Shown here piece by piece: positions 4,288 to 52,993 of a stretch of 64,000 nt of DNA. Below the pieces are notes generated by a model that was not told the origin of the DNA, did no database searches, and saw nothing but the letters and a program-made list of their open reading frames with translations. Position 1 is the first letter of the stretch; the number at the start of each line of letters is the position of its first letter. The position numbers and the translations under genes were made by a program. The stretch lies in IMG/VR virus record IMGVR_UViG_3300035208_003016, one strand, 5' to 3'. The DNA comes from an uncultured virus (IMG/VR IMGVR_UViG_3300035208_003016) (Duplodnaviria > Heunggongvirae > Uroviricota > Caudoviricetes).

Positions 4288-4297
4288 TGGAGAAATA

Positions 4298-5551: not shown

Positions 5552-5552
5552 T

Positions 5553-7826: not shown

Positions 7827-7828
7827 TA

Positions 7829-14727: not shown

Positions 14728-15507
14728 ATGAATCAAATTACTTTAAAATCATCATTCTTTTCATTTTTATCTTATGATGAAAAAAATGTACAAGATAAGA
14801 TACATAAAACTTTTAAAGATCATAAAACTCATTTTATAAAAAATGAAGATGGAAGTCACTTTTTTGGTCTTATTATTGATAATATTAATAAAATAGCATA
14901 TCTTGTTAATCGTGGAACTGATGGTGATAATAATCTTGGAAATTTACATTCATGGTTATATGATGCTAATCTTTTTACTGGTAGTGATGGAATGCATAAT
15001 GGTTTTCAAAAATTAGCTAATAAAGTATTTGATCAATTTAAAGATATACTTGTTAATTATAAAACAATTGTTTGTTGTGGTCATTCTCAAGGATCTGGTG
15101 TTGCTCAAATACTTGCTAAATTATGTTGTGAAAATCTTTCTAAAGATAAGAAAATTAAATTAATAGTATTTGCTGCGCCACCATCTGGAAATTATACTTT
15201 TAAAGAAATTGTTCAAAAATTTATAGATAATGGACAACTTGAAGTAGAACGATATATTATGCCAGGTGATCCAATAGCATCTAAAAAACTTAGAAATAAA
15301 AAAAGTATATTACTTAATGGAGAAGATGTTGGCCCAGATAGTTGGCTTCCAGATATCATACAGACTAAACTTGGTCCATTTGAAGCAATAAATCATTCAT
15401 GTAAAGTCTATGTTGTTGGACTTATATTAGAACTTCTTAAAAGTGATATTGAAACTTTAGAAGACTTAAATTTTCTAGGATGTTTGTTTAGAAATTGTGT
15501 TAATTAA
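14728..15507 (+). CDS. Class-3 lipase / alpha-beta hydrolase
   Basis: RGT oxyanion motif, MHNGF, GHSQGSGVA nucleophile elbow, FAAP, GDPI, C-terminal His (NHS). Confidence 0.9.
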   Translation: MNQITLKSSFFSFLSYDEKNVQDKIHKTFKDHKTHFIKNEDGSHFFGLIIDNINKIAYLVNRGTDGDNNLGNLHSWLYDANLFTGSDGMHNGFQKLANKVFDQFKDILVNYKTIVCCGHSQGSGVAQILAKLCCENLSKDKKIKLIVFAAPPSGNYTFKEIVQKFIDNGQLEVERYIMPGDPIASKKLRNKKSILLNGEDVGPDSWLPDIIQTKLGPFEAINHSCKVYVVGLILELLKSDIETLEDLNFLGCLFRNCVN

Positions 15508-15832: not shown

Positions 15833-16744
15833 ATGTCAGAATTATCAATTTTAATTCCAGCAAGAAATGAAATGTGGTTACAAAATACTATTGATGATAT
15901 TCTTAAAAATATAGAATTAGATACAGAAATTATAGTTTGTTTAGATGGATATTGGCCTTATATTCCAATAAAAGATGATAAACGAGTAAAAATAATACAT
16001 TATACAGAATCAGTTGGTCAAAGAGCAGCTACAAATGATGCAGCTAAATTATCTAGATCTAAATATATAATGAAATGTGATGCTCATTGTGCTTTTGATA
16101 AAGGATTTGATAAAAAACTATTAAGTACAATAGAAGATAATTGGACAGTTATTCCAAGAATGTATAATCTTCATGTGTTTAATTGGTTATGTAAAAAATG
16201 TAATAATGAAACTTATCAAGGACCTACTCCAACAAAATGTGATAAATGTGAAGGTGCTGAGTTTGAACGTAAATTAATTTGGAAACCAAGATTAAATCGC
16301 AAAACTGATTTTACAAGATTCGACAGTGATCTTCATTTTCAATATTGGTCTGATTATGAAAAACGTCCTGAAGCTAAAGGTGATATTGTTGATGTGATGT
16401 CAAATCTCGGGGCTTGTTGGTTGATGTCTCGTAAACGATACTGGTCATTAGATGGTCTTGATGAAGAACATGGTTCCTGGGGTCAGATGGGTACTGAGAT
16501 AAGTTGTAAGAGTTGGTTATCTGGAGGAAGACAAGTAGTTAACAAAACAACATGGTTTTCTCATCTATTTAGAACCCAAGGTGGAGATTTTGGATTTCCT
16601 TACCAAATATCAGATAAACAAGTCCAGAATGCCAGAAAAAGATCAAGAGAATTGTGGTTAGAAAATAAGTGGCCTAAAGCTATTAAAAAATTAGATTGGC
16701 TGATTAATAAATTTTCACCAGTACCAACATGGGAAATAAAATGA
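15833..16744 (+). CDS. GT2-family glycosyltransferase with zinc-ribbon insertion
   Basis: LSILIPARNE, EIIVCLDG, GQRAATN, KCDAH (DxH), GLDEEHGSWG; insert CKKC...CDKC. Confidence 0.9.
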   Translation: MSELSILIPARNEMWLQNTIDDILKNIELDTEIIVCLDGYWPYIPIKDDKRVKIIHYTESVGQRAATNDAAKLSRSKYIMKCDAHCAFDKGFDKKLLSTIEDNWTVIPRMYNLHVFNWLCKKCNNETYQGPTPTKCDKCEGAEFERKLIWKPRLNRKTDFTRFDSDLHFQYWSDYEKRPEAKGDIVDVMSNLGACWLMSRKRYWSLDGLDEEHGSWGQMGTEISCKSWLSGGRQVVNKTTWFSHLFRTQGGDFGFPYQISDKQVQNARKRSRELWLENKWPKAIKKLDWLINKFSPVPTWEIK

Positions 16745-16936: not shown

Positions 16937-17644
16937 ATGGGAAACTTAATGAAATATCCAGATAATTTAACCATAATATATCTTACGAACAACTTGATGC
17001 CTGAAGGTTGGATGAAATTTCAATTAGATGCTTTTGCTAAAGCATCTGAAGGATATAAAGTTATTTCTGTGTCTAGAGTTCCAATGAATTTAGGTTATAA
17101 TATTATTCAAACAGAACCATCTTCTTATTGGAATATTTATTACCAATTAATGAAAGCAGCTAAATTAGCAGATACAGATTTTATAGCAACTGCTGAAGAT
17201 GACACGTTATATACACATCAACATTATCATGAATTTAGACCAAATGTTGATGAAATAGCTTATGATCGATCAAGATGGTCTTTATTTACATGGGATAAAG
17301 ACCCAATATATTGTTTAAGAAATAGAGTATGTAATTGTTCAATGATTTCACCAAAAAAGTTATTTATCGATGCAATTGAAGAACGCATAGAAAAATATCC
17401 TAATGGACTTCCAAACAGTGAAGTGGGAGAAGTAGGTAGAGAAAGAATAGAGTTACGTCTTAAAGTTAAACGTAATAAATTAGTAGAATTTTATTGTACT
17501 AATTCAATTGTACAACTTAATCATACTAATGGTGAAGATATAAGACAAAAAGAAAAATGGAAATCACATGGTCAAATTAAAGCATATGATATTCCTACTT
17601 GGGGTAAAGCAAAAAATATAGTGGAGATTTATAATGGACGTTAG
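16937..17644 (+). CDS. GT-A fold glycosyltransferase-like protein
   Basis: TIIYLT N-terminal strand; TDFIATAEDDTLY (EDD) motif; GT cluster context. Confidence 0.6.
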   Translation: MGNLMKYPDNLTIIYLTNNLMPEGWMKFQLDAFAKASEGYKVISVSRVPMNLGYNIIQTEPSSYWNIYYQLMKAAKLADTDFIATAEDDTLYTHQHYHEFRPNVDEIAYDRSRWSLFTWDKDPIYCLRNRVCNCSMISPKKLFIDAIEERIEKYPNGLPNSEVGEVGRERIELRLKVKRNKLVEFYCTNSIVQLNHTNGEDIRQKEKWKSHGQIKAYDIPTWGKAKNIVEIYNGR

Positions 17645-18218
17645 AAAAGCAATTTTAGAAAAGTTTAGATTTAGAGGAACTAGAGATAATATGCCAATGT
17701 CCTCACCTAAAGGAACAAGAGAAACATTAGCAGAATTACTTGAGGAACTTGATTTTAATAAAGGAATCGAGGTAGGATCTAGAAAAGGTCACTATGCAAT
17801 GGTATTATGTCAGAAAAATCCTAAGTTAGAATTAACTTGTATTGATCCTTGGAAAGCTTATAGTCATTTAACACAAGAAAAACAAGATGAAATATTTGAA
17901 GAATGGAAAAAGAATATGCAACCATTTAATGCTAAATTTATAAGAAAATATAGTATGGATGCATTGATTGATTTTGAAGATAGATCTCTTGATTTTGCTT
18001 TTATAGATGGTAATCATGAATTTGATTATGCTGCACCTGATATTATTTTTTGGGCAAAAAAAGTAAAAGTTGGTGGAATTTTTGCAGTACATGATTATTA
18101 TAATTTTTATAGATCTGGTGTTATTAAAGCAGTAGATGCATATACACATTGTAATAGAATTAAAGAATGGTATTGTACTCAAGAAAAAACACCAATAGCA
18201 TTTTGGATTAATATATGA
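17634..18218 (+). CDS. Class I SAM methyltransferase (Methyltransf_24-like)
   Basis: GIEVGSRKG, CIDPW, LDFAFIDGNH, KVGGIFAVHDY. Confidence 0.9.
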   Translation: MDVRKAILEKFRFRGTRDNMPMSSPKGTRETLAELLEELDFNKGIEVGSRKGHYAMVLCQKNPKLELTCIDPWKAYSHLTQEKQDEIFEEWKKNMQPFNAKFIRKYSMDALIDFEDRSLDFAFIDGNHEFDYAAPDIIFWAKKVKVGGIFAVHDYYNFYRSGVIKAVDAYTHCNRIKEWYCTQEKTPIAFWINI

Positions 18219-18724
18219 GAAATGAAGATATAAGATTGCGTAATAGTTTAAATGTTGGAAGTCATCTTCCAGTTTTAATGAAATTATTTTCTATTACTGA
18301 TGGACCAATAGTTGAATATGGTGGAGGAATAAATTCTACTATATTTTTTCATTGGGCGTGTTTTTCAACAGAAAGAAAATTGCTGACTCTAGAGAGTGAT
18401 TGGATAAATCATAAACTATTAAGAAAATTTAGAACCGATTGGCATCAATGTCAATTTGTTAGACATTGGAATGATGCAATTGTTGAAGATAATTATTCAC
18501 TAGTTTTTATAGATCATAACCCAGCTGCTCAAAGGCATGTGGATGTTAAAAAACATATAAATGCTGAATATGTTGTACTTCATGATTCTGAACCAGATAA
18601 AAATAATATTTATTTTTATGATCGAATTTATCCTTTATTTAAATATAAACTTGATTATACAAAATCTTGGCCTAATACAACAATATTAAGCAATGTTCAT
18701 AGATTAAATAAATTGAAAATATGA
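18215..18724 (+). CDS. SAM methyltransferase-like protein
   Basis: IVEYGGGINST, LTLESD, LVFIDH, VVLHDSE. Confidence 0.7.
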   Translation: MRNEDIRLRNSLNVGSHLPVLMKLFSITDGPIVEYGGGINSTIFFHWACFSTERKLLTLESDWINHKLLRKFRTDWHQCQFVRHWNDAIVEDNYSLVFIDHNPAAQRHVDVKKHINAEYVVLHDSEPDKNNIYFYDRIYPLFKYKLDYTKSWPNTTILSNVHRLNKLKI

Positions 18725-19308
18725 TTCCGAAAGTTATCAATCAAGTTTGGCTTTATCCACCTATAGATAATAAATATCTTAATTGGTCTAAAACGTTTGA
18801 TATATCTGGATTTAAACATAAAATTTGGGAATTACAAGATTGTTTAAATTTATTAAGTCCTGAAACAGTAAGTATTATAGAAGATCCAAATGTGCATTGG
18901 ATATATAAGGCTACTTTTGCAAGATATGATATTTTAAGACTATTTGGAGGTTTTTATGCTGATATGGATATGGAATGTATAAAGTCTTTCGAAGATTTAT
19001 GCAATCAAGATTTTATATGCGTAAAACAAAATGATAGAGAAATATCAGATGCTTTTATAGGATGTTCTAAAAATAATAGTATTATAGATAGAGTTTATCA
19101 AAAAGCTTTATATAATTTTAATAATCTTAAAAATAAAAGTTCCAAACGTTGGATTCTAGAAACTGCAAGCGTATTTATGATAACAAAAGAATTAACAGAT
19201 CAAATTCCATTAGAACAAGAATATTTTTGTCCTATCTGGAAAGGTCGAGGAAAAGTTACAGATAAAACATATTGTATTCACCATTATACAAGGTCATGGA
19301 AAAGATGA
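18721..19308 (+). CDS. GT32 (OCH1-like, DxD) glycosyltransferase
   Basis: MIPKVINQVW, RYDILRLFGGFYADMDMEC, YCIHHYTRSW. Confidence 0.9.
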   Translation: MIPKVINQVWLYPPIDNKYLNWSKTFDISGFKHKIWELQDCLNLLSPETVSIIEDPNVHWIYKATFARYDILRLFGGFYADMDMECIKSFEDLCNQDFICVKQNDREISDAFIGCSKNNSIIDRVYQKALYNFNNLKNKSSKRWILETASVFMITKELTDQIPLEQEYFCPIWKGRGKVTDKTYCIHHYTRSWKR

Positions 19309-20006
19309 TAAAACTATCAATAATTCATCCTGTACTTAATAGTCACGAAGTTGTAAGACGACAATTGCTTCATTATGAAAAACAAAATTTACCTGATGAA
19401 GTAGAGATTATTATAGTAGATGATGATAGCGATCCTCCATTAATTAATAATGGATTAAAAAACTTATCCATTTATTATACCCATGACCCAAGACCTTGGA
19501 CTTGGCCTATTGCAAGAAATCTTGGAGCGAAGATGGCTAAAGGTGAATTACTATTCTTTGCTGACATTGATTATATAATCCCAAGAGAAGCAGTTTTAAT
19601 GGGATTAGGACTTAAAGAAGATAGAATGAATGTGCGTAGAGAATTTGGAGTTCTCGATGAAAATGGTAATTTAACACAAGACTTAGATGTATTAAGACAA
19701 TATGGATTACTCGAAGGCCGCATACAAAGTAAAGGTGTGAATGTATCTGCCCATACAAATACATTTATAATGAAAAAAGACGTATTTTTTAAAATGAATG
19801 GTTATAGAACAGATCGAATAGGTAAACCTTACCCACAAAGAGAAGATGGTGATTTTGATCGAGATTGGTTGAAACGATATGAAAAAGGTGAAGTAAACAG
19901 AACTCATGATAGGCCAACTGTTTATATGTTTCCAAACGGTAAGTTCTGTGGAGATTTAGATTATAATCCTTTTGGACTTTTTCATACAACGAGTAGGAAG
20001 AATTAA
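19305..20006 (+). CDS. GT2/GT7-C-like glycosyltransferase
   Basis: LSIIHPVLNS, IIIVDDDS, ARNLGAKMAKGELLFFADID, MNGY...EDGDF. Likely start is the ATG at 19305 (ATGA overlap). Confidence 0.85.
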   Translation: MIKLSIIHPVLNSHEVVRRQLLHYEKQNLPDEVEIIIVDDDSDPPLINNGLKNLSIYYTHDPRPWTWPIARNLGAKMAKGELLFFADIDYIIPREAVLMGLGLKEDRMNVRREFGVLDENGNLTQDLDVLRQYGLLEGRIQSKGVNVSAHTNTFIMKKDVFFKMNGYRTDRIGKPYPQREDGDFDRDWLKRYEKGEVNRTHDRPTVYMFPNGKFCGDLDYNPFGLFHTTSRKN

Positions 20007-21938
20007 ATGTTTAAAAATTTAATTAGAATAATTATATTAATAACTTTAAGTAGTTTTAATATTAATGCCACCAGATACTATGTGGACAATGCTGCCGCTA
20101 ATGATGCAGGAACTGGTGCAGTAGGCAGTCCTAAAAAATATATTCCATCTGGCATTGCTTTATTATCGGCTTCTGGTGGAGATACTGTTGTTGTTAAAGA
20201 TGGGACGTATTCAGGTACAAGTAATCTAATTAATACATTCGTAAATGGTGTATCTGGAGCGTATAATACTTTAATGGCCGAAAATAGTGGAGGAGTTATA
20301 TCTACTGCGGGACTTCAATTTGTTAGGTCTACTTCTCCATATAGTTTTCAACAGTATATAATAATAAAAGGAATTAAATTTAGTAATTCTGCACCTAAAC
20401 AAGTACAAGGTCAACGTATAAAATTCTTTGAATGTGCTTTTCAAGGTGGTGCAGCAACTGACAATACCTCTACTGTAGAAGTTGGCACCGATAACTACAA
20501 TGATACTAGGTATATTTTGTTTGAAGATTGTTGGGCTTATGGTAGTGGAGGAAGATATAATTTTGAAATTTTCAATTCGGATACAATAGTAATGCGAAGA
20601 GTTGTAATTCGACATGATGGTGGCTGGACTGATTCGAAAGGTGATCCTGAAGCTGGGATTGCAAACTATAATAGTAGTTGTTGTGAGTATCAAAACTGTA
20701 TAGTTATAGACTGCGATCAGACATATCACACTTGGGGCAGGGCAGTATATACTATTTTTAATACATATTCAGAAGGAGCTGGTGGTATTCCACATCCAAC
20801 TAATAATGTAAATTATAGAGGTTGTATAATTTTGAATGTGGATGGTTCTGGATTTGAAAGCGATGGTGATGGAGCATCTCCACATCCAGCTACTGATATT
20901 ATATCAAATTACTATGATGTAGTATGTTGGAATTCGTTTGCAGGAGGTTTTTCTGGAGGTTCTACTGGTGGAACTACAATACTTACATTAAATCGATGTA
21001 CTTTCGGTGGGTCAGATAATTCAGGGGGTTGGACATCAGGTTTTGATAAGTGGGATAATGGATCTTTTACAATCACTAATACAATCTGTACAGGATATGA
21101 TGGTATAGACTTCTCTTCTGAATGTGCAGCAAGTTATTGTAACACATATAATAACTCTGATAATGGGACATGTTCTAATTGTCAAACATATAGTCCTTTC
21201 ACTAACGGTTTACTATATCCTATTAGAATTGAAGCAGGTAGTAATTTATTATCAGCTGGTCAATCTGGAGGACAAATTGGTGCTACTATAGTTAAAAGAA
21301 TGGGAACATCTGGAACCTTATGGGGAGAGAGTGGATATAATACTTTATCTGATGTAGATTTATGGCCGTGGCCCAATGAAGCAAGAATAAAAGCAGATAT
21401 GGCTGCGGTAAGTGCAAGAGGGTTTTGTACAGGTAATTCAATGAATGGACAAGCACAATCACTGACTAAATACATTTGGGAATATGCTGGAAATGAAGCT
21501 CCTTCATTCGGTTCTACTCCTGTAAAAGTAACTTGGGTAGGGGGTACTTCCACCAATGCTGCTTTAGCTGCTAATTACTCTCCAGCTCAAGCGCCTACCT
21601 CCATCGATACCATCTTACTTAATACTGGATCTGTTGATTTTGTAGTAGGGTCTGTTATTAATGTTGCGTATGTAAGTCAAGTCACCGGCTATACTGGAAC
21701 TTTTACCGTAAATGATACATTGAAAACTAATTATTTAGGGCTTGGCACATGTGCGGCAAGTTTTAATGCGCCTTGTGTTATAAAAGATTCTGTTGTTTAT
21801 GCAACTGCTTCTACCCCCACTGGAAATGCGGGAAGCAAGATAATATCTGTTGCTGGTAGTACGTTGAGAGTTAGGTTGAATGGTAATGTAGGAACACCGA
21901 GAGTAGTGATGACTTCAGGTAGTAAAATTAAATGGTAG
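20007..21938 (+). CDS. Signal-peptide-bearing right-handed beta-helix (pectin-lyase-like) protein A with shared C-terminal module
   Basis: Sec-like leader MFKNLIRIIILITLSSFNINA; YYVD..GND..G...SP..GDTVVVKDGTY; Cys/Asn ladder repeats. Confidence 0.75.
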   Translation: MFKNLIRIIILITLSSFNINATRYYVDNAAANDAGTGAVGSPKKYIPSGIALLSASGGDTVVVKDGTYSGTSNLINTFVNGVSGAYNTLMAENSGGVISTAGLQFVRSTSPYSFQQYIIIKGIKFSNSAPKQVQGQRIKFFECAFQGGAATDNTSTVEVGTDNYNDTRYILFEDCWAYGSGGRYNFEIFNSDTIVMRRVVIRHDGGWTDSKGDPEAGIANYNSSCCEYQNCIVIDCDQTYHTWGRAVYTIFNTYSEGAGGIPHPTNNVNYRGCIILNVDGSGFESDGDGASPHPATDIISNYYDVVCWNSFAGGFSGGSTGGTTILTLNRCTFGGSDNSGGWTSGFDKWDNGSFTITNTICTGYDGIDFSSECAASYCNTYNNSDNGTCSNCQTYSPFTNGLLYPIRIEAGSNLLSAGQSGGQIGATIVKRMGTSGTLWGESGYNTLSDVDLWPWPNEARIKADMAAVSARGFCTGNSMNGQAQSLTKYIWEYAGNEAPSFGSTPVKVTWVGGTSTNAALAANYSPAQAPTSIDTILLNTGSVDFVVGSVINVAYVSQVTGYTGTFTVNDTLKTNYLGLGTCAASFNAPCVIKDSVVYATASTPTGNAGSKIISVAGSTLRVRLNGNVGTPRVVMTSGSKIKW

Positions 21939-21952: not shown

Positions 21953-22636
21953 ATGGCACATGAAATAGCAGTATCAATTGAAACTTTACCTTCAACTATC
22001 TCAATCGATAAAAAAGGTAAACGGCATATTACGCACAGAAGAAGTGGGGACATTGTTGCTCCAATATCAGACTTTAAAAAGGTAGAAAAATGGCTTGAGA
22101 TAGTTTGTTCTTTCGGAAATCCAAAACACCCAAATCATGAGTTAATTTTTGATGGTTTAGTTAATAACTGCGATTGGAAGAAGAATAAACATGTAGATGG
22201 TGCAAAGGGTATCTGGAGTAAAGAGCTACAAGATAAATGGTTTGAAGCTGATTGTAAATCTTCTACAGAATATGATCGAATAGCTAACTTGACACGTCTA
22301 TGGAATAGCGAAATCAAACAGACTATCGGTTGGATAGATCATATGGGTAAGGAACCTAACGGTGTTGAAGATTTAGTTAATACTTGGCAATGGAGTAAAC
22401 ACGAAAAGTCAAACTTTTATGTAGTTGTTAATAGTGATGCAAATGAACAAGAGATGAAGGAATTATCAAATCGAGATATTAGTGACAGTACAGACGTAAG
22501 AGAAATTAGAAGGAAAAATATCGATTGGGAATCAGATTTGTTATTATCGAATAGTAAAAAAAATAATATTAAAAATAGAAATACTGTTGTACACCCCGAC
22601 TTTTCTAACCCTATGTCTAAGGTTAAAATATCATGA
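21953..22636 (+). CDS. Hypothetical protein, possible fibre assembly chaperone
   Basis: Charged 227-aa ORF between fibre-like genes; TAAGGA RBS. Confidence 0.4.
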   Translation: MAHEIAVSIETLPSTISIDKKGKRHITHRRSGDIVAPISDFKKVEKWLEIVCSFGNPKHPNHELIFDGLVNNCDWKKNKHVDGAKGIWSKELQDKWFEADCKSSTEYDRIANLTRLWNSEIKQTIGWIDHMGKEPNGVEDLVNTWQWSKHEKSNFYVVVNSDANEQEMKELSNRDISDSTDVREIRRKNIDWESDLLLSNSKKNNIKNRNTVVHPDFSNPMSKVKIS

Positions 22637-24528
22637 AAATTTTACAAACTTTTTTCCTGTTGCTGTTCTTTCTGGTGTCGATTGCGGATGCTGCGATACG
22701 GTACATCTCCCCCACCGGAAGCAACGCTGCTGCCGGAACAACTGGTGCTCCATGGAGGACGTTTGAATACGCATTCGGTGAGATTTCTGGTGGAGACACC
22801 TTGTATTTAAAGCCCGGCACATACTCAGAGGCTGCGGGGACCGGATACATATCGTGGGAAGGTACCGGATCTGGTCAACCACCATCCGGGGTATCGCGCA
22901 CGCACATGACGCTCGTTGCGGCCACGGTAGAGGATTCAACCTTTGTTACCGGAGTATTGTTTTTAGGGAGATCCGACAGAAAAGACACCTGTATTTACGT
23001 AAGGGGAATAACGTTTAACGGGGGCGTGCATCTTTACAATAACCGGCATTGTGTGGTTAAAAATTGCGGTGGTTATAATACATTGGAGAACGGTGGGGTA
23101 GTTTTTGAGATATCTCCTGACGGAGATCACCAAATGGGATGTACCAACAATTTGATCGAAGACTGTTGGGCGTGGGGGCAAAATAGGGGAATTGCATTAG
23201 ATTACATAGCGGATAGTAATACGTGGCGCAGGGTTGTAATACGCGGCGATGGATGCAACAGTGCCGCGTGTGTAGGGTCTGGAAACCCTAACGTTGGTAT
23301 ATCGTGTTACGCATCAAAGAGAGTTACTTTTCAAAATTTAATAATTGTCGATAGAGTGCTTGGCGGTGGTGAGCCGTATGCAAATTTTGCAACAGCGGAG
23401 CACGCACAGGGTAATCTTGGACCGCTAAAAGTCCAGGGGTGCATATCTTTAAACGGCCCGGATGAGGGGTACTATTTCGAGGCTGAAAACGCAAACGACA
23501 GTACATTTATAATAGAGAATTCCATTGCGTGGGACATGGCCGACGACGGATTTAGTTTACAAAATCATGCGTTCCCGCATACGATAATCAGGCGATGCAC
23601 CTCCGGTTATATAGGTGGCGACAACGCTTTTCGAACCGTTGAGGTTACAAGTGCGCTACTGGATAATTTACTTTCAATAAACGCGACAACGTACTCGTTT
23701 AGCTGTAATATCCAACCTCAGTACGTGTGTGCTTATAATGGCGGGACATACAATCAAACCACTCCGGCGCATCCGATAACGACAGACCCTGGGATGCGAT
23801 ACATTTGCAGGATAGAATCTAATAGCACTTGTCACGGAACCGGGTCGAATGGATCTGATATCGGGGCAAATATTTTATACCGATACGGTCTGGACGGTAC
23901 ATTTTTTGGGGAACCTGGGTATGACAGCCTAACCACGATATCGTTGTGGCCGTACCCAAATGAGGCCAGAATACGAAGGGATTTTCTACGGTACAATAAC
24001 GAATCTGACGAATCGCGAGGATTCTGTGATGATGCTGTTGCGGCGTCATTGACGGAGTACGTTTGGGAATACCAATATAGGAATGAGGCTCCTTCTTTTG
24101 GTGGATCTCCTGTTAAAATAACCTGGGTAGGTGGATCTTCGACCAATGCTGCTTTAGCTGCTAATTACTCTCCAGCTCAAGCGCCTACTTCAATTGATAC
24201 AATATTACTTAATACTGGATCTGTTGATTTTGTAGTAGGGTCTGTTCTTAATGTAGCGTATGTAAGTCAAGTCACTGGATATACTGGAATCGTTACCATT
24301 AATGATACATTGAAAACTAATTATTTAGGACTTGGAACATGTGTAGCGAGTTTTAATGCTCCTTGTGTCATTCGAGATTCTGTTGTTTATGCTTCAGAAT
24401 CTACACCCACTGGAAATGCAGGAAGTAAGATAATTTCTGTTTCAGGAAGTACGCTAAGAGTAAGGTTGAATGGTAATGTAGGGACACCAAGAGTAGTGAT
24501 GACTTCAGGTAGTAAAATTAAATGGTAA
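22633..24528 (+). CDS. Signal-peptide-bearing beta-helix protein B, paralog of 20007..21938, GC-rich N-terminal part
   Basis: Leader MKILQTFFLLLFFLVSIADA; YISPTGSN...PWRT...GGDTLYLKPGTY; shares EDCWAxG, RRVVIR.DG and LWP.PNEARI with protein A. Confidence 0.75.
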   Translation: MKILQTFFLLLFFLVSIADAAIRYISPTGSNAAAGTTGAPWRTFEYAFGEISGGDTLYLKPGTYSEAAGTGYISWEGTGSGQPPSGVSRTHMTLVAATVEDSTFVTGVLFLGRSDRKDTCIYVRGITFNGGVHLYNNRHCVVKNCGGYNTLENGGVVFEISPDGDHQMGCTNNLIEDCWAWGQNRGIALDYIADSNTWRRVVIRGDGCNSAACVGSGNPNVGISCYASKRVTFQNLIIVDRVLGGGEPYANFATAEHAQGNLGPLKVQGCISLNGPDEGYYFEAENANDSTFIIENSIAWDMADDGFSLQNHAFPHTIIRRCTSGYIGGDNAFRTVEVTSALLDNLLSINATTYSFSCNIQPQYVCAYNGGTYNQTTPAHPITTDPGMRYICRIESNSTCHGTGSNGSDIGANILYRYGLDGTFFGEPGYDSLTTISLWPYPNEARIRRDFLRYNNESDESRGFCDDAVAASLTEYVWEYQYRNEAPSFGGSPVKITWVGGSSTNAALAANYSPAQAPTSIDTILLNTGSVDFVVGSVLNVAYVSQVTGYTGIVTINDTLKTNYLGLGTCVASFNAPCVIRDSVVYASESTPTGNAGSKIISVSGSTLRVRLNGNVGTPRVVMTSGSKIKW

Positions 24529-24542
24529 CTAAGGAATAATAT
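24082..24542 (+). repeat. Copy 2 of ~460-bp direct repeat
   Basis: See 21492..21952; both end ...agtaaaattaaatggta...taaggaataatat. Confidence 0.95.
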
Positions 24543-24543
24543 A

Positions 24544-27500
24544 ATGCCAACATATGATATAGGTACTGGACAGACCTACACTACGATATCTGCGTGGGAA
24601 ACCGCCAGAGATATATCCCGGACAGAAGATGAGGTCGGCGAATGCCTTGCCGAACTCTTTAATGAAAACGTCAACTTTACCGGAGGGACGCCAAACGGAT
24701 ACTGGATGAAGCTGCGTGGCAAGGCTGGAGCGAGGCACGATGGCCGTGCTTACGAGGTCAGTAGTGTAGCCTGCGCCCGCATTTACCGCTCTGCAAATGC
24801 CACAACAGTAAACGTTGACGTCGGTGGCATAGAAATAGCATGGCTTGACATTAAAGGTCCGGGAAACTACACCCAGGACACCATCAGCCGTGCGGGTGAC
24901 TTAACTGCCGATGGCGATTTCAGGCTACATCATTGTATCATACATAACAACTTTGCAAATAATAACGGCTCTCAGGTAGCCATCACGATGTCGGATGATT
25001 CGGAAACGACGAATTACCGAATATATCGAAACCTCGTCTATGGCTTCGGTGGTGCTGGCATATTACCGTATCAGATTGGTGGTACTACAAAATACGTCTA
25101 TGCGTACCATAATACTTGTGCTTTATGTGGGCAAGTATTAGGTGAAACTGATGCTGGTGGTATTCAGAACAGTATGACAGAAAGTACCGCCTATTTTGAA
25201 AATAATGTCTCAGTTGGTCAACTAAATGTAGATTATTATGGAACAAATTACGGTAGCTGGGACAACAATGCTTCTGAGGATACTACAGGAGATTCTACTG
25301 GTGGTCCTGCTCATAATGTAGACCTTAGAAGTCTTAATCCAAGTGGTTTATTTCAGAACTATACAAGCACTTATGCGTCTATTGATCTACGCACAAAAGT
25401 AGATTCTGATTTAATTGGAATGGGTGATACAACTTATTCTACTACCGATTTTCCTGAAATAGACATACCAATTACTGGTGGTGATGCTATTACAGGAACA
25501 TGGGATATAGGAGCAGATCAATATGCAGAGGCTGTAAATACCGCAAGTAATTCTCCTTCTACTTCACCATCAAGTAGCGCAAGTAATAGCCCTTCTACTT
25601 CACCAAGCCCAAGTAATTCACCAAGTAATTCTTTATCTACAAGTGCTTCAAATAGTCCTTCTAGTTCAGTTTCAAATTCACTAAGTAACTCACCAAGTAC
25701 ATCTATATCAATTAGTCCTTCTACAAGTGAGTCAAGTTCACCATCTCCATCAAATAGTCCATCTACTTCTCCCAGTCCTGGAATTAGTGCTTCTAATTCA
25801 CCAAGCACATCTTTAAGTAATTCTTTATCAGATAGCCCTTCTTCTTCGTTATCAAGTTCTATTAGTAGTAGTCCGTCTCCTTCTAATAGTGCAAGTGAAT
25901 CACCTAGTACATCTTTAAGTGAAAGCCCATCAACAAGTTTATCAAGTAGTATTAGTAATTCTTTGTCTAGTAGTCCATCTACTTCTCCAAGTAGTAGTCC
26001 ACCTGAATTTAGCCTAATATCTTATTCTGATGATTATGATAATAATGCTATTCTTTATACACAAGAATTGTTCACTGTTCAAGAAAATGATTTATTAGTT
26101 GGTGTATGTATGTGGGAAGAGAGTAGTAGGACACCAATCTTACAAGAAAATACTTTAGCTTATAATTTTACAATGTTAGATGTTATTACAAATGCTAACA
26201 GTACAAATGTAAGATTTGGTTATCATGTTGTAACTTCTGCGGAGGCTGGAACTGGGATTAGATATAGAGCAGATTATGGTTCTATTACATCATTAGCCAC
26301 AATTTCTGTTTATTTATTTAGACCAACTTCAGGTATCCCAGAAATAGAAGTGTTTGGTTCTGGAATTGGAACTGGAACATCTCCACAAACCAATAGTATA
26401 TCTACAGCAGGGCCTTCTGTAATTGTAGCTGCATTAGATTGTTATGGCGGAGGAGTTAGTAATCAACAAATTAATTTAACTACTCCTGATACAATTTATA
26501 CTTTAAGTTCAGATGAATCTACTTTTTATACAACTGAAACTTCTCTTTTATCCAATATTTATGCATCTGCTACATGCTCTAATGATGCGTGGGCAATGGG
26601 AATTATTGCTTTTAAAGTTTCTTCGGGAGGAAGTAGCGCCTCAAGTTCACCATCTACTAGTGAATCAAGTTCACCGAGTCCTAGTACATCCGTATCAAAC
26701 AGTGTATCAAGTAGTTTATCAAATAGTGCCAGTGAATCTCCATCAAGTTCATTAAGTAATTCATTATCAGATAGCCCGAGTAGTAGCGAATCCTCTTCTA
26801 TTTCAAATAGTCCATCACCAAGTTTATCACCTTCTAATAGTGCATCTGATTCTCCAAGTAATAGCGAATCAAGTTCTCCTTCTTCGAGTATAAGTTCAAG
26901 TATATCAAGCAGTGTTAGTAATTCACCATCAACATCTCCTAGTCCTTCAAATTCACCAAGTTCATCTATAAGTAGTTCTATTTCTAACAGTGCTAGTACA
27001 AGTCCTAGTTATAGTTTATCTAATAGTCCAAGTACCTCTATTTCTAATTCAAGTAGTAATAGTCCATCACCTAGTAATTCATTATCAAGTTCAGTATCAT
27101 CAAGTCTTTCAACAAGTCCTTCTACTTCATTAAGCAATAGTATTTCTAATTCACTTTCTTCGAGTATATCTTCGTCTCCAAGTAATAGTCCTAGTCCAAG
27201 CAATAGTCCATCTATTTCAGAATCGAATAGTCCTTCTACGTCTATTAGTAATAGTGCTTCAAGTTCCCCTTCGAGTTCACCTAGTCCAAGCAATTCTTTA
27301 AGCAATAGTCCATCTTTAAGTCCAAGTATTTCGTTGAGTAATTCACCATCTACTTCGCCTTCTCCATCAAGTTCTGTTTCTAATTCACCAAGTCCAGGAA
27401 ATAGTGCTAGTAACAGTCCATCTAGTTCAGAATCTAATTCACCAAGTAATTCTTTAAGTACATCTATATCAAATAGTGCTTCAAATTCACCATCGCCAAG

Positions 27501-29526
27501 TAACAGTCCTTCTACCTCGTTGAGTAGTTCTATTTCTAATAGTATGTCTAGTTCACCTTCAAATTCATTAAGTAATAGTCTAAGTAATAGTGCGAGTAGT
27601 AGTGCAAGTAATAGTCCTTCACCAAGTAACTCTGTTAGTAATTCATTAAGTAGTTCACCTTCTACTTCAATAAGTAATAGTACTTCAAATAGTCCTTCAA
27701 GTAGTGCAAGCTCGTCACCAAGTCCTTCATACAGTTTAAGTAATAGTCCAAGTATAAGTACGTCTAATTCACCTAGTACTTCACCTTCTCCTTCGCATTC
27801 ACCAAGTACAAGTCCAAGTAGTTCTATTTCTAATTCTATAAGTACTAGTATCTCAACTAGTGTTTCTAATAGTGTAAGTAGTAGTATTAGTACGTCGCCT
27901 TCTACATCACCAAGTGGTGGTACTGAACATATTACTCAAATGACATATTATCCTGGTCCTGGTGATGCGGAGTTTGATGTAGATACTACTTATATAATTG
28001 ATACATATGTTTCAGGTGAATGGAATGGTACGTCTGGAAATTTAGTTAATTTTTATAGTAGTGCAAGTGGAGTTCAATCGACATTAGATTTACAAACTAT
28101 TGGTAACGTTAATGTATCTTATATGACTTTTAGAGATATAGAAATTATTAATGGTACTATAACTGCAGATTATACGTGTGATGGTAGTTCTTGGAATAAT
28201 TCAGGAATAATTTTTTCAAATAATTCTCCTTCAACATCTATAAGTAGTTCAATTTCTAATAGTTATTCTTCAAGTCCAAGTAATTCACTTTCTAATAGTA
28301 TTTCTAATTCATTATCAACTAGTAGTTCTAATAGTCCAAGTACAAGTATATCTAGTTCTCCAAGTCCTAGTAATTCACCATCACCATCATTGTCTCCTAG
28401 TAATAGTGTTAGTTCTAGTTTAAGTAATTCATTGAGTAGTTCAGAATCAAATAGTCCTTCAACATCACCAAGTCCAAGCAATAGCCCTTCTAGTTCTATT
28501 AGTTCAAGTTTAAGTAATAGTTTGAGTAGTAGTCTGTCAAATAGTCCAAGTACTTCTGTTTCTAATTCACTTAGTGAATCTGTATCAAATAGTTTATCAA
28601 ATTCACCTAGTTCTTCACCAAGTCCAAGTAGTAGTGTAAGTAATAGTCCAAGTGAAGGAAATAGTGCATCTCAATCACCTTCGACTAGTCCTAGTCCTTC
28701 AAGTAGTATTAGTAATAGTATTTCTTCAAGTATTAGTAATAGTGCTAGTAATAGTCCTAGTCCTTCTATTTCACCTAGTAATAGTGAAAGTTCTAGTGTA
28801 AGTAATAGTCCATCAATAAGTGTTTCTAGTTCTATTAGTAGTAGTCCTTCTCCAAGTAATTCAATTAGTAATAGTCTAAGTAGTAGTGCTAGTACAAGTC
28901 TATCATCTAGTGTAAGTTCAAGTTTAAGTAATAGTATATCTACTAGTTTATCATCAAGTGTTTCTAGTTCACCAAGTCCTAGTAATAGTCCATCTAGTTC
29001 AATTTCTAGTAGTCTAAGTAATAGTGCTAGTTCTAGTATTTCTAGTTCTCCATCATCTAGTCCAAGTATTAGTTCTAGTCCAAGTTCTAGTAGAAGTAGT
29101 TCAGTTTCAAATAGTCTTAGTCAAAGTCCTTCAAGTAGTATTTCACATAGTCTTAGTAGTTCAGTTAGTCATAGTCCTTCATCAAGTCCAAGCTTAGGAG
29201 ATCTAGATTATATATTAATTTTTCCAGAAACTGCATTAATTCCAGTTAGAGCACAACTTTTATTTATTGCAAAAGGCTATACTGAATATGATGTAGAAAT
29301 ACATGGACTTACTTTTGTTTGGTCAACAACACTTGGACAAGTTATTAATAGTTCAACTGGATTATTTACTGCTGGAAGTTTTGCTGGTGGACCTTATGAA
29401 GTAACTGCTACAATTGGATCAATAAGTACTACTGCATATGTTACAGTATTTGAATTAAATAACACTCATAGGCGAAGAAGATTACTTCCAATTTTTCTTC
29501 AGTTTTGTGAACGTAAACGTAGATAA
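24544..29526 (+). CDS. 1660-aa serine-rich-repeat (mucin/SRRP-like) virion protein: beta-helix head, three S-x-S-x tracts, two spacer domains, C-terminal Ig-like domain and basic tail
   Basis: Head IGTGQTYTTISAWE...WDIGADQY; Ser at alternating positions over about 900 aa; Big_2-like C-terminus (FVWST...TGLFTA...VTATIGSISTTAYVTV); tail HRRRRLLPIFLQFCERKRR. Confidence 0.75.
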   Translation: MPTYDIGTGQTYTTISAWETARDISRTEDEVGECLAELFNENVNFTGGTPNGYWMKLRGKAGARHDGRAYEVSSVACARIYRSANATTVNVDVGGIEIAWLDIKGPGNYTQDTISRAGDLTADGDFRLHHCIIHNNFANNNGSQVAITMSDDSETTNYRIYRNLVYGFGGAGILPYQIGGTTKYVYAYHNTCALCGQVLGETDAGGIQNSMTESTAYFENNVSVGQLNVDYYGTNYGSWDNNASEDTTGDSTGGPAHNVDLRSLNPSGLFQNYTSTYASIDLRTKVDSDLIGMGDTTYSTTDFPEIDIPITGGDAITGTWDIGADQYAEAVNTASNSPSTSPSSSASNSPSTSPSPSNSPSNSLSTSASNSPSSSVSNSLSNSPSTSISISPSTSESSSPSPSNSPSTSPSPGISASNSPSTSLSNSLSDSPSSSLSSSISSSPSPSNSASESPSTSLSESPSTSLSSSISNSLSSSPSTSPSSSPPEFSLISYSDDYDNNAILYTQELFTVQENDLLVGVCMWEESSRTPILQENTLAYNFTMLDVITNANSTNVRFGYHVVTSAEAGTGIRYRADYGSITSLATISVYLFRPTSGIPEIEVFGSGIGTGTSPQTNSISTAGPSVIVAALDCYGGGVSNQQINLTTPDTIYTLSSDESTFYTTETSLLSNIYASATCSNDAWAMGIIAFKVSSGGSSASSSPSTSESSSPSPSTSVSNSVSSSLSNSASESPSSSLSNSLSDSPSSSESSSISNSPSPSLSPSNSASDSPSNSESSSPSSSISSSISSSVSNSPSTSPSPSNSPSSSISSSISNSASTSPSYSLSNSPSTSISNSSSNSPSPSNSLSSSVSSSLSTSPSTSLSNSISNSLSSSISSSPSNSPSPSNSPSISESNSPSTSISNSASSSPSSSPSPSNSLSNSPSLSPSISLSNSPSTSPSPSSSVSNSPSPGNSASNSPSSSESNSPSNSLSTSISNSASNSPSPSNSPSTSLSSSISNSMSSSPSNSLSNSLSNSASSSASNSPSPSNSVSNSLSSSPSTSISNSTSNSPSSSASSSPSPSYSLSNSPSISTSNSPSTSPSPSHSPSTSPSSSISNSISTSISTSVSNSVSSSISTSPSTSPSGGTEHITQMTYYPGPGDAEFDVDTTYIIDTYVSGEWNGTSGNLVNFYSSASGVQSTLDLQTIGNVNVSYMTFRDIEIINGTITADYTCDGSSWNNSGIIFSNNSPSTSISSSISNSYSSSPSNSLSNSISNSLSTSSSNSPSTSISSSPSPSNSPSPSLSPSNSVSSSLSNSLSSSESNSPSTSPSPSNSPSSSISSSLSNSLSSSLSNSPSTSVSNSLSESVSNSLSNSPSSSPSPSSSVSNSPSEGNSASQSPSTSPSPSSSISNSISSSISNSASNSPSPSISPSNSESSSVSNSPSISVSSSISSSPSPSNSISNSLSSSASTSLSSSVSSSLSNSISTSLSSSVSSSPSPSNSPSSSISSSLSNSASSSISSSPSSSPSISSSPSSSRSSSVSNSLSQSPSSSISHSLSSSVSHSPSSSPSLGDLDYILIFPETALIPVRAQLLFIAKGYTEYDVEIHGLTFVWSTTLGQVINSSTGLFTAGSFAGGPYEVTATIGSISTTAYVTVFELNNTHRRRRLLPIFLQFCERKRR
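25541..26001 (+). repeat. Serine-rich repeat tract 1 (S-[PLIVAE]-S-[NST])n
   Basis: Translation SNSPSTSPSSSASNSPS...; codons mixed AGT/TCT/TCA. Confidence 0.9.
26632..27915 (+). repeat. Serine-rich repeat tract 2
   Basis: About 430 aa of the same degenerate repeat. Confidence 0.9.
28219..29193 (+). repeat. Serine-rich repeat tract 3
   Basis: About 325 aa of the same degenerate repeat. Confidence 0.9.
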
Positions 29527-29543
29527 TTTTTTAGGAGATAATA

Positions 29544-30977
29544 ATGGCTGTTTTACAAATAACTAATGGCGCTTGTACTGGTAGAGGTTTTGCTGATACG
29601 TCAGTTAGTGGATATATGTCAAAATTTTATGATTGGATTACTAAAATACCAGCAAGTGGCGGTCCTGGATGGAATATACTTTTAGATAAGTCTATATATC
29701 CTACAACTAAAACTATGACTTCTATGATAAGTGGAGTTATAATATCAAGTGGACATGGATTTTATTCAAATGAAATAATTCGATATTATACTTCTGGTAC
29801 AATTATAAATGGTCTTACTAATAATACTGATTATTATGTTACGAAAGTAAATGATAATAGTTTTAAATTAAGTACAAATCATTTTAATGTTGGTATTGGA
29901 ACATATATTAATATAACAAATTCTGGTGTTGGATCTCAAACTTTCACTTTAAGTGGTCCATATATTATAATTTCTGATGAACCATCTCCTCAAATTAATC
30001 AAGTTTGTAAATTTATGAAAGTTGGATATGGAATTCCACAAGGAAGTTATATTCAAGTTCAATATTTTATAGGATGGAATAATACAAGTAAAATACTTGG
30101 AAGTATTTATGGTGGTTATATTATAGAAACTGTAGATGATGGTAATTTTGCATATGATTTTCGTGGTGGTGATGAATGTATGATTTTACAATCACGTATT
30201 GGTACTACTTGGGATTCTACTGGAATGGATACTTGGACTGGAGATAGTACTTTTCTAGAAGGTCTTGATCATTCAGGAACTTTAAGGAGTGTTGGTGTGC
30301 CTGGTACTAATTCAGTAGCATACTTAAGATCTGGAGAATCTAGTAATATAACTAGTGGTGAATATTATTATTTATATGATTATTCTCAACTTCCTTATGT
30401 TCGTTTAGAATATTCTAAATGTACTTATGTTGATGCTGGAGCTGATAGTGTTACTTTTTCTGGATTAGTTCATACATTTCCATCAGGATCTGTTATTGGA
30501 TCATATCCTCATAGATATATGTGTTTTGGTAATAATATTTATGATAATAATTCATTTTGTTATTCGACATATATACCATATACAATACCTTATACATCTC
30601 ATCCTAATTGGTATTATTGTAGTAATTTAGGATATGGATCTATTAGTTCAAGTTGTAGATCATCTTATGAAGATGGTATTTTAAATTCTTCATCTCCTGA
30701 TGAAAAAGGTAGACATCTTATGGAAAAATGGAATATATTAGAATGGGCATCAAATCAAAGTAATTATTACACTCCTAATTATAATGGTATGAATAGATTT
30801 TATGGATCTGCTAATAATTTATATTTAACTAAAATTAATTCAATGGCACGTAGTCAAGATGGATTAATTTATGGTGGAAAACAGTATCTATATTTTATGT
30901 TATCTAGTGAAATTGGTGGATATGGTGGAAGTGCTAGTTATGCTATTTTATATCCAGATAGTGTATCAAGTGAATAA
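29544..30977 (+). CDS. Virion/tail protein with small beta-barrel insert; SG-rich
   Basis: GHGFYSNEIIRY...GLTNNTDYYVTKVNDNSFKLS module common in phage tail proteins; AGGAG RBS; 12 SG. Confidence 0.55.
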   Translation: MAVLQITNGACTGRGFADTSVSGYMSKFYDWITKIPASGGPGWNILLDKSIYPTTKTMTSMISGVIISSGHGFYSNEIIRYYTSGTIINGLTNNTDYYVTKVNDNSFKLSTNHFNVGIGTYINITNSGVGSQTFTLSGPYIIISDEPSPQINQVCKFMKVGYGIPQGSYIQVQYFIGWNNTSKILGSIYGGYIIETVDDGNFAYDFRGGDECMILQSRIGTTWDSTGMDTWTGDSTFLEGLDHSGTLRSVGVPGTNSVAYLRSGESSNITSGEYYYLYDYSQLPYVRLEYSKCTYVDAGADSVTFSGLVHTFPSGSVIGSYPHRYMCFGNNIYDNNSFCYSTYIPYTIPYTSHPNWYYCSNLGYGSISSSCRSSYEDGILNSSSPDEKGRHLMEKWNILEWASNQSNYYTPNYNGMNRFYGSANNLYLTKINSMARSQDGLIYGGKQYLYFMLSSEIGGYGGSASYAILYPDSVSSE

Positions 30978-31886
30978 ATGTCTATTTATAGTGGAATATT
31001 AGCATCTGGAAATATTGTATTTGGTGATTCTTATACAGTAGTTAATTTAAATATTCCAAAATCGTTCATTGAAAGTCAGATTGTTTCTGGTTCAATATGT
31101 ACTGGTGAATCATATACAGTAATTAATTTAAATATTCCAAAATCTTTTGTTGATGCACAAGTTATTAATCGCCATATATATTCTGGAGAATTTTATACAA
31201 AAGTTAATAATAATCGAGTATATAATAATGGATCTTTAATTGTAACAGTTCCTAGATCTGGATTAGCCAATGATACTGGAATGTTACTTATTCTTGGATA
31301 TTATACTGATTTTTATGCTAATCCTAGACTATCTTATCCATATAATAATATATACTTTTATGATAATACATATGGACCAGATATTTCATCTTATTATTGG
31401 AATTTTGGAGATGGTAATTATAGTACTGAACGCGATCCAATTCATTTTTATACACATACTGGATTATATGATGTTTCATTAGAAACAACTTCTATAAATG
31501 GAGAAACTGCTTATTTAAATAAAACTAATTATATTAACATTCAAAGCAATAATGTTTCAGTTAATCATTCAGATTATAAAATAGTAATTTTAAATAAACG
31601 AATAAGTCCATATAAATCCAATGATCTTTTACAAATTTCAGTTCAATTGTATGAAAATAATAAAAAGAAACTATTCTATATTAAAGATGTTGTTCTTACA
31701 TTAAATTTAAACTATCCTAATGGATGGCAGGCATACTCATCTGGAATAACTAATAAAACTGGGTCTTGTGTCTTATATCAATCTTCTAGTGGTATATTAT
31801 CCAGTAATTGTTTAGGATATGTTTCTGCAACAATAAATAACCAAAGTTATATTTCAAATATAATTAGATTTAACTTCATTAATTAA
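30978..31886 (+). CDS. PKD-domain virion protein with 27-aa N-terminal repeats and C-terminal Ig-like domain
   Basis: YYWNFGDGNYSTERDPIHFYTHTGLYDVSL (PKD); repeats G.SYTV.NLNIPKSF at 81-nt period. Confidence 0.8.
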   Translation: MSIYSGILASGNIVFGDSYTVVNLNIPKSFIESQIVSGSICTGESYTVINLNIPKSFVDAQVINRHIYSGEFYTKVNNNRVYNNGSLIVTVPRSGLANDTGMLLILGYYTDFYANPRLSYPYNNIYFYDNTYGPDISSYYWNFGDGNYSTERDPIHFYTHTGLYDVSLETTSINGETAYLNKTNYINIQSNNVSVNHSDYKIVILNKRISPYKSNDLLQISVQLYENNKKKLFYIKDVVLTLNLNYPNGWQAYSSGITNKTGSCVLYQSSSGILSSNCLGYVSATINNQSYISNIIRFNFIN

Positions 31887-50858: not shown

Positions 50859-50866
50859 ATAATTAC

Positions 50867-51070
50867 TTACGTTAAGGTGAGATTATTTCTTAAATATTGT
50901 ATAAAACATTCTAGATCGCAAAACATATTATTATATTCTATATAATGCATATTATTAGGAGTATATATAAATGTTCCTTTAAGATCATCATTTTGAATTG
51001 ATAATCCTTTATTTTCTTCTATTATTTTATTACAGTGAGTACAATTCATATTAGTTTTTATATATTCCAA
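50867..51070 (-). CDS. Small zinc-finger protein (treble-clef-like)
   Basis: CTHC...FCDLEC. Confidence 0.55.
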   Translation of the reverse strand: MEYIKTNMNCTHCNKIIEENKGLSIQNDDLKGTFIYTPNNMHYIEYNNMFCDLECFIQYLRNNLTLT

Positions 51071-52308: not shown

Positions 52309-52314
52309 TATAAT

Positions 52315-52624: not shown

Positions 52625-52642
52625 ATTGTTCTTTACAAATAA

Positions 52643-52730: not shown

Positions 52731-52737
52731 GTAATAT

Positions 52738-52974: not shown

Positions 52975-52993
52975 ATTGCTTCTTTCTTTTAAA

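Follow-up and report, generated by a model that had tools for sequence, protein, structure and literature searches.

The window examined here is a 64,000-nucleotide stretch of an uncultured tailed virus (Caudoviricetes; IMG/VR record IMGVR_UViG_3300035208_003016) and represents the first 64 kb of contig C121 (135,678 bp; GC 0.27). At positions 24544..29526 of its plus strand lies a gene, beginning with ATG and preceded at 9 nt by AGGA, for a modular protein of 1,660 amino acids (aa) in which three long tracts of alternating serines, here written (S-x)n, separate four globular parts. C121 is a phage of at least 135.7 kb: along with baseplate J and wedge proteins (3760-5551), it codes for a head maturation protease, a sigma factor, a primase-helicase, a DNA polymerase, a UvsX-like recombinase, a DNA ligase, and two tRNAs, and these structural, protease, and replication genes on the same contig bear out the view of a first-pass annotation of this DNA that the gene is phage encoded. 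It belongs to a codirectional array of large open reading frames (ORFs) extending from 111 to 48419, with intergenic gaps of no more than 17 nt between 16937 and 34208, and sits inside a tail/baseplate module, where a tailspike or tail fiber gene would be sought. Its downstream neighbor (29544-30977) matches tail fiber and baseplate wedge PHROGs, and the gene after that encodes a PKD domain.

The serine-repeat architecture can be read directly from the translation. Tract 1 (25546..25998; aa 335-485), tract 2 (26635..27915; aa 698-1124), and tract 3 (28225..29193; aa 1228-1550), all on the plus strand, sum to 901 of the 1,660 aa and leave globular parts at aa 1-334, 486-697, 1125-1227, and 1551-1660. 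The serine content of the tracts is 56-60%, a serine is followed by another at i+2 in 83-89% of cases, the alternate position is mainly P, N, T, L, or I, and charged residues number only 17 across all three. No other (S-x)n frame occurs on C121. The tract serines are specified by AGT (258), TCA (119), TCT (106), AGC (19), TCG (14), and TCC (3), and successive serines (S-x-S) use the same codon box in 222 pairs and a different one in 221. Tandem Repeats Finder reports only short arrays in the gene (period, 12-24 nt), and its direct DNA repeats are 60-82% identical. Since the codon boxes are mixed and the DNA copies only this much alike, the repeat is kept at the level of the protein and not of the DNA. 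An LPxTG-like motif (LP.[TSA]G) is absent throughout the protein, and inspection of the N terminus, which begins MPTYDIGTGQTYTT, reveals no hydrophobic leader, the first globular domain starting at residue 1-5, as in its relatives. In these respects the first-pass annotation, which had described about 900 residues of S-x-S-x repeats in three tracts parting four globular domains, maintained at the protein level and lacking both a signal peptide and LPxTG, agrees with our counts and searches.

As repeats can mislead assemblers, such a gene could conceivably be a misassembled or noncoding low-complexity stretch. We regard this as exceedingly improbable in view of a 4,983-nt frame that stays open within AT-rich DNA of 22-27% GC, the divergence of the DNA copies noted above, and the agreement of contigs from two sequencing runs, X1 and X2 (two studies, of landfill and groundwater), in which single contigs span 24498-31000 with 3 differing letters and 0 gaps, one or both of these runs being possibly the source of the window DNA itself. 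In addition, a related phage is represented by contigs from two groundwater runs of a third study, in which tract 1 is shorter by 42 nt and tract 2 by 162 nt, both deletions being in frame.

A cassette of glycosyltransferase (GT) and accompanying genes is found 5′ of the gene on the same strand. The first of these (15833..16744) encodes a 303-aa GT-A glycosyltransferase with a Pfam Glycos_transf_2 match, whose seven PDB sequence matches are all polypeptide GalNAc-transferases (E values of 1.7e-4 to 9.6e-3). A profile built from 21 phage homologs recovers 19 PDB matches, the top 15 of which are again polypeptide GalNAc-transferases (best E value, 7.8e-14), and aligns both halves of the GT27 catalytic domain. 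Residues D83, H85, and H244 are invariant across the 21 homologs; the phage “ldAHC” (the DxH motif) aligns with LDAHC of GalNAc-T1, “yahlFR” aligns with “GHVFR,” WGQMGTEISCKSWLSGGR aligns with WGGEQYEISFKVWMCGGR of GalNAc-T10, and the phage stretch WG..E.S.K.W.SGG falls on the Gal/GalNAc-T motif region, which we take to be the one reading WGGE..E.S.R.W.CGG. At the level of sequence homology, these alignments establish the protein as a relative of the polypeptide GalNAc-transferases (GT27), and we consider it the candidate initiating enzyme of the cassette. The 235-aa protein encoded by the following gene (16937..17644) has no match in Pfam, nor in the PDB with either the single sequence or a profile; in many phages it is fused to the C terminus of the GT27-like enzyme (e.g., at viral-contig loci L020, 4377-6050, and L031, 5901-7604), in the position that the ricin lectin domain occupies in the animal enzymes. 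The remaining cassette genes encode a Methyltransf_24 methyltransferase (17634..18218), a 169-aa protein (18215..18724), a DXD-motif glycosyltransferase assigned to Gly_transf_sug by Pfam (18721..19308), and a second GT2 glycosyltransferase with a TarP/TarS-like N-terminal half (19272..20006). A further set of sugar genes lies on the minus strand (49710-62101 in the window and 65140-66651 of C121) and comprises two GT4 proteins, a GT1-like protein, a radical SAM/SPASM protein, two FkbM methyltransferases, a PseC-like aminotransferase, and a WecB-like UDP-GlcNAc 2-epimerase scoring 207.5 bits against a cutoff of 210.15.

Scanning viral contigs with the GT27-like protein yielded 22 loci (49-75% identity; GC, 0.35-0.56), most of which also carry a paralogous GT27-like gene, a methyltransferase, and the 235-aa protein. 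Homologs of the cassette methyltransferase are present in 21 of the 22 (none in L018), those of the 169-aa protein in 7, and those of the second GT2 enzyme in 5, as well as in a further locus, L012. Serine tracts were counted in stop-to-stop frames, in all six frames and within 10 kb, as residues inside windows of at least 40% Ser, with a threshold of 150 residues. A frame with at least 150 such residues accompanies the GT27-like gene in 17 of the 22 loci, and at least 40 such residues are present in 20. The long frames are on the strand of the enzyme, with tracts of 162 to 1,372 residues in which 67-100% of serines are followed by S at i+2, and in 11 of the 17 loci they lie no more than 100 nt from a GT27-like frame. 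By comparison, none of 78 control loci (1.09 Mb) around ribonucleotide reductase (RNR) genes reaches 150 residues; Fisher's test gives a p of 4e-15, which exaggerates the strength of the contrast, as the RNR set is made up of closely related loci (76-100% identity to the query) and the GT set collapses into ~13 clusters at 70% identity. Nor does any of 11 control loci encoding relatives of the first globular domain reach the threshold, with 2 of them reaching 100 residues. A scan with a ligase found no loci, and a scan with a GT4 protein returned the contigs of loci L006 and L007, met again below as carriers of such relatives, and nothing further. Among 185,579 species genomes we found five GT27-like loci, all in metagenome-assembled genomes, and two of these have (S-x)n tracts, of 801 and 381 residues.

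The (S-x)n partners encoded at these other loci share none of the domains of the 1,660-aa protein. Their heads include a CE2/GDSL esterase in L018, which also matches the PHROG “neck passage structure protein” (E value, 1.4e-21), a right-handed beta-helix in L019, a lectin-like Laminin_G_3 (LamG) domain in L026 and L037, DUF2341 with a ConA-like domain in L033, and DUF4082 in L035; some partners have weak matches to “virion structural protein” PHROGs. The conservation of the enzyme set and the tract while the heads vary is the pattern expected of an enzyme and its substrate. The survey of phage genomes for linkage between serine-rich repeats and GTs that the first-pass annotation had suggested thus gives 17 of 22 GT27-like loci with a long (S-x)n protein and, in terms of gene content, establishes a genomic coupling of the two in other phages. 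Because the GT27-like homologs pair with (S-x)n proteins at this frequency, against none of the 78 RNR loci, the tracts probably serve as substrate for an O-glycosylation cassette of the phage.

A number of observations weigh against that reading. A long tract is missing from five of the 22 loci: L027 and L038 extend less than 1.7 kb downstream, the tract of L031 runs into the end of its contig, and those of L032 and L034 amount to only 51-76 residues. Of three control loci around WecB homologs, one has a Ser-rich tract of 366 residues, though this is collagen-like, (G-S-S)n; it belongs to a fiber-like protein (L124, 3-2690; tract of ~366 aa) on a viral contig with a WecB homolog. On the 89-kb viral contig of locus L011, acidic (E-S-S)n tracts occur in three neighboring structural ORFs (938-9371), one of them related to the first globular domain of the protein studied here, and the 16 kb of the locus contain no GT27-like gene. 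In the window itself, the cassette stands 4.5 kb from the gene and is not adjacent to it. The GT27-like protein has neither the ricin lectin domain of the animal enzymes nor any Pfam match besides Glycos_transf_2 in its 303 aa. Finally, bacterial carbohydrases contain Ser-rich linkers that are not known to be glycosylated (PMC2386152).

The tracts could instead be plain, unmodified flexible linkers and the cassette could act elsewhere, on host envelope glycans, another virion protein, or DNA. Locus L012 (GC 0.54), which also counts against the preferred reading, fits such a division: it has four cassette genes (45-55% identity) beside a relative of the first globular domain and no (S-x)n protein in 17 kb. 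The second large sugar-biosynthesis set would likewise suit envelope remodeling, and the second GT2 enzyme resembles the teichoic acid enzymes TarP and TarS. It is harder to reconcile with the 17 loci that pair the enzyme with an (S-x)n protein of otherwise varying domains, the two being abutted in 11, and with the closest solved relatives of the enzyme, all of which act on Ser/Thr of polypeptides; we therefore judge plain linkers to be distinctly unlikely. Alternatively, the serines might be modified in some other way, for example by phosphorylation, acylation, or a radical SAM-dependent reaction, or might bear sugars added by host enzymes, with the GT27-like enzyme being only one accessory. 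Genes for radical SAM, methyltransferase, sulfotransferase-like, and pyruvyl transferase proteins do accompany the cassette here and in other phages, but no kinase or acyltransferase recurs, and the GT27-like gene is the only one present in all 22 loci (by construction) and is duplicated in most of them. A modification of this kind appears improbable to us, and O-glycosylation of the tracts by the phage cassette is the reading that we carry forward.

The N-terminal globular domain, or head (24544..25545, plus strand; aa 1-334), belongs to an unnamed family, with 145 relatives at E values of ≤0.001, 71 at ≤1e-10, and 29 at ≤1e-30 among 1.84 billion representative proteins. Matches to Pfam, NCBIfam, and PHROG were not found even at an E value of 10, a PDB sequence search was empty, and the family profile gave only weak PDB matches, to 9rx2 and 1ru4. 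An AlphaFold2 model computed with a 64-sequence alignment has a pLDDT of 92.3 and a pTM of 0.93 (the single-sequence model has a pLDDT of 33.7), and in structure comparison with VIA-align, over 200-255 aligned residues and with Z scores ranging from 20.8 to 14, it resembles the glycoside hydrolase BT_1002 (20.8), a rhamnogalacturonan lyase (20.4), a PL6 alginate lyase (19.7), the cyanophage Pam1 tailspike (18.2), and the Fri1 capsule depolymerase (17.3). Foldseek agrees, with a probability of 1.0 for several members of the right-handed beta-helix superfamily. As modeled, the head is a three-sheet right-handed parallel beta-helix, and the beta-helix assigned to it in the first-pass annotation is corroborated by the confident model and Z scores of ~20 to polysaccharide lyases, hydrolases, and tailspikes. 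H65, N242, D246, and D281 are nearly invariant across the family alignment, a pattern that would suit an enzyme.

Members of the head family are mostly stand-alone proteins of 320-350 aa that open with the beta-helix domain. Longer members have the head first, followed by other repetitive stalks (TDG-, PAVVP-, and PGAVT-type and ESS repeats), and in none of the 145 does Ser exceed 15%; no head relatives were found among proteins of 913-2905 aa. Eleven viral contigs encode head relatives. The family gene lies beside an SU10-type adaptor gene in L007 and L012 and a few genes 3′ of the major head protein in L010 and L013. On the podophage-like contigs of L012 (1-6021) and L007 (12896-15346), glycan-tailoring genes are situated near the head-family gene, including those for a pyruvyl transferase, a cupin, a B12-radical SAM enzyme, a GT4 protein, an FkbM methyltransferase, and a sulfotransferase-like protein.

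At the other end of the protein, aa 1551-1638 (29194..29457, plus strand) form a bacterial Ig-like domain homologous, at 37-38% identity, to the tandem Ig repeats of two long proteins, P0146 (E value, 3.5e-20; Pfam matches to Big_1/invasin D3) and P0147 (4.5e-17; I-set, Ig_2, and PKD). A direct Pfam scan of aa 1551-1638 was negative, NCBIfam and PHROG likewise yielded no match for this part, and language-model neighbors point to Big_2 (0.85-0.89), which we treat as a lead only. The last 22 aa, NNTHRRRRLLPIFLQFCERKRR (29458..29523, plus strand), constitute an Arg-rich tail. Together, the homology to P0146 and P0147 and this tail confirm the C-terminal organization given in the first-pass annotation. 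Tails of the “h-L-RRRR” type end 8 of 76 short-tailed stand-alone members of the head family (e.g., ...ARRRRLLCA), RRR being found in the body of none of the 76, and the family members of L006 and L007 also end in an RRRR-type tail. As the Arg-rich tail is shared with some stand-alone family members, the ~1,300-residue module of tracts and domains looks as though it was inserted between the head and its native tail. We take the tail to be a candidate docking peptide.

The two internal globular domains belong to no known family. Domain 2 (25999..26634, plus strand; aa 486-697) has no match in Pfam, NCBIfam, PHROG, or the PDB, and no homolog among proteins of 116-371 aa or in 233 other genomes of the order; the proteins closest to it by language model, hypothetical viral ones of 175-192 aa (score, 0.95), are again only a lead. 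The C-terminal domain of the head relative in L013 was considered as a domain 2 homolog and ruled out (E value, 1.3). Domain 3 (27916..28224, plus strand; aa 1125-1227) is likewise without a match, and no homologs of domains 2 to 4 were found in the homologous proteins and loci collected here.

The related phage from the third study is informative on both the layout of the locus and the pace at which its parts change. In its contigs, 20006 is followed directly by 21951, and 21942 by 24541, so that the 4.5 kb between the cassette and the gene is absent. In the window, this interval holds two paralogous beta-helix ORFs (20007-21938 and 22633-24528) with signal-peptide-like N termini and weak Pel9A-, DUF1565-, and PelN-like matches; their last 165 aa are identical at 136 of 165 positions, and neither has a homolog elsewhere in the genome bin. 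Because the contigs of the related phage join across them, these two ORFs and the small one that they flank are insertions that the phage can do without; in their absence, the cassette would abut the gene. The glycosylation inferred in the first-pass annotation, which pointed to the adjacent GTs of streptococcal glycoproteins, gains comparative support less from the mere presence of nearby GTs than from the GT27-like type of the enzyme and the linkage of its homologs to (S-x)n proteins.

In the same comparison, 116 of 788 positions are changed in the head piece (~85% identity), as against 29 of 691 in the C-terminal piece and 30-48 of 715-1,024 in three cassette pieces (~95-96% identity). GC content at third codon positions (GC3) reaches 0.45-0.52 over codons 1 to 180 of the gene (24544-25083) and 0.37-0.53 in 22633-24072, compared with 0.0-0.18 in the gene beyond codon 300 and 0.04-0.09 in other genes of the genome. 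Each of the two patches is the N-terminal part of a beta-helix gene, which suggests recent recombination with a phage of higher GC. From the lower identity and the GC3 mosaic, the head looks recently exchanged and faster evolving, as would be expected of a distal specificity module carried on a conserved anchor. The length of the stalk, too, is variable.

Considering these observations jointly, we propose that the product of the gene is a long, flexible virion fiber of a large tailed phage. The N-terminal beta-helix would be its distal, exchangeable module, recognizing or cutting glycans, and the three (S-x)n tracts would be spacers, O-glycosylated in the host cytoplasm by the cassette that the phage itself encodes. 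The GT27-like transferase would place the first sugar on serine, and elongation and trimming of the chain would fall to the remaining transferases and the methyltransferase, so that the glycosylated tracts might become stiff, protease-resistant bottle-brush segments. The Ig-like domain and the Arg-rich tail may hold the protein on the particle. Glycosylation, the identity of the sugar, location in the virion, and adhesin function are inferred, and for the reading as a whole we put the chances at about even. More broadly, and with somewhat less than even confidence, we suggest that many unrelated tailed phages perform a cytoplasmic, mucin-type O-glycosylation, in which relatives of GT27 start chains on dedicated (S-x)n stalks with interchangeable glycan-binding heads and a small virion anchor.

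One point against this proposal is that tailspikes are normally anchored via the N terminus, and here that end is the beta-helix itself, the head starting at residue 1-5 with no particle-binding domain 5′ of it. One could instead envisage a glycosylated but soluble or cell-associated multimodule protein that degrades or binds polysaccharides, is made during infection, is released at lysis, and clears capsule or biofilm for the progeny, the tracts serving as glycosylated linkers. In favor of this, no N-terminal virion-binding domain is recognizable, the head is as similar to carbohydrate-active enzymes as it is to tailspikes, and the beads-on-a-string plan matches that of carbohydrases with polyserine linkers; moreover, the two neighboring beta-helix genes with signal-peptide-like N termini imply that the region is not purely structural. 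Yet the protein has no signal peptide, its gene is embedded in an array of tail and baseplate genes, its Ig-like C terminus and conserved basic tail resemble attachment parts, and among the (S-x)n proteins of other phages, one matches a neck passage structure protein and others weakly match virion structural proteins. Such a released protein seems to us rather unlikely, and the virion fiber remains our preferred interpretation.

Several parallels to this proposed fiber can be drawn from known systems. The serine-rich repeat proteins (SRRPs) of Gram-positive bacteria, such as GspB, Fap1, PsrP, and SraP, have long (S-x)n tracts flanking a binding region, dedicated GT genes nearby, a leader for the accessory Sec (aSec) system, an LPxTG motif, and the transferases GtfA and GtfB. 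The phage protein is like them in its long (S-x)n tracts, nearby GT genes, and a presumed O-glycosylated stalk displaying a binding module, but differs in lacking an aSec-type leader and LPxTG, in its unrelated head, in having three tracts and four globular parts, and in a candidate initiating enzyme that is GT27-like (GT-A) and not GT4. GtfA or GtfB was not found above the cutoff: the GT4 protein at 65140-66651 of C121 matches GtfA, SdgA, and SdgB at 24-26 bits, against 575-800, and scores alike to MshA and BshA. No Sec component is present among the Pfam and PHROG matches on the contig, where no search aimed at SecA2, SecY2, or Asp was made. With leader, LPxTG, and GtfA/B all missing and head and enzymes unrelated, the parallel to streptococcal SRRPs drawn in the first-pass annotation fails as kinship and is an analogy only.

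The animal polypeptide GalNAc-transferases (PDB 1xhb, 2ffu, and 2d7i, among others) and their mucin substrates offer a second comparison, since the catalytic halves align and the candidate substrate is a Ser-rich, Pro-containing repeat. Identity to these is low, however; the ricin lectin domain is absent from the phage enzyme, which in many phages is instead fused to another domain of ~230 aa, and it would act in the cytoplasm. With regard to the head, tailspikes and depolymerases (Pam1, 7eea; Fri1 gp49, 6c72; and the CBA120 tailspikes) share its beta-helix fold class (Z scores of 15-18) and the position among tail genes, but the phage beta-helix is at the extreme N terminus with no anchor domain before it, and has no sequence similarity detectable through Pfam or PHROG. 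To our knowledge, the evidence to date for glycosylated proteins in phage particles comes mainly from a few mycobacteriophages. In these, phage GT genes reportedly lie near structural genes, and glycans are on the C termini of capsid and tail tube subunits (PMC12619734, citing Freeman et al. 2023), whereas here the candidate is a dedicated repeat protein with an acceptor tract of ~900 residues and an enzyme of a different family. The polyserine linkers of multimodule carbohydrases of Saccharophagus degradans and Cellvibrio are Ser-rich spacers between carbohydrate-active and binding modules (PMC2386152); they are shorter, nearly homopolymeric in Ser, part of secreted bacterial enzymes, and described with no dedicated transferase cassette, in all of which the phage tracts differ. 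In the literature searched, which lay outside subscription journals and supplements, we found no account of (S-x)n proteins or GT27-like enzymes from phages.

If the proposal is correct, these phages would wear mucin-like glycoprotein fibers, and a widespread cassette for serine-repeat fibers would add a new layer to phage surface biology, with possible effects on adsorption, on the reach and stiffness of receptor modules, on protease resistance, and on immune visibility. It would also place relatives of the animal mucin-initiating enzymes in viruses of prokaryotes and imply a deep viral or prokaryotic branch of GT27-type enzymes, with a bearing on the origin of mucin glycosylation. In practical terms, a tract and a GT27-like enzyme make up a simple two-gene test system, and the modular plan of a swappable head, a tunable stalk, and a small anchor is of interest for the engineering of phage host range.

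GenBank phages include no close relative of this one: a DNA search with 20000-44000 was empty, protein searches with the head and with domain 2 were likewise negative, and the baseplate J protein has distant matches to jumbo phages only. Relatives of the downstream neighbor (29544-30977) were not found in viral contigs, and a promoter and terminator scan gave 91 promoter-like sites against 82.7 expected. The genome bin containing C121, G000, is bimodal in GC, with contigs at 0.27-0.30 and at 0.41-0.44, and at least one of its contigs is from a phage; C121 is the only one in which a GT27-like gene was found. One of its low-GC contigs (C36:3414-7280) encodes a 1,289-aa protein of “LSSSYLxTS”-type repeats, which is Ser-rich and not of the (S-x)n kind. 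Within the structural array of C121, just 5′ of the cassette, a gene at 14728-15507 encodes a class 3 lipase (Lipase_3; E value, 3e-13).

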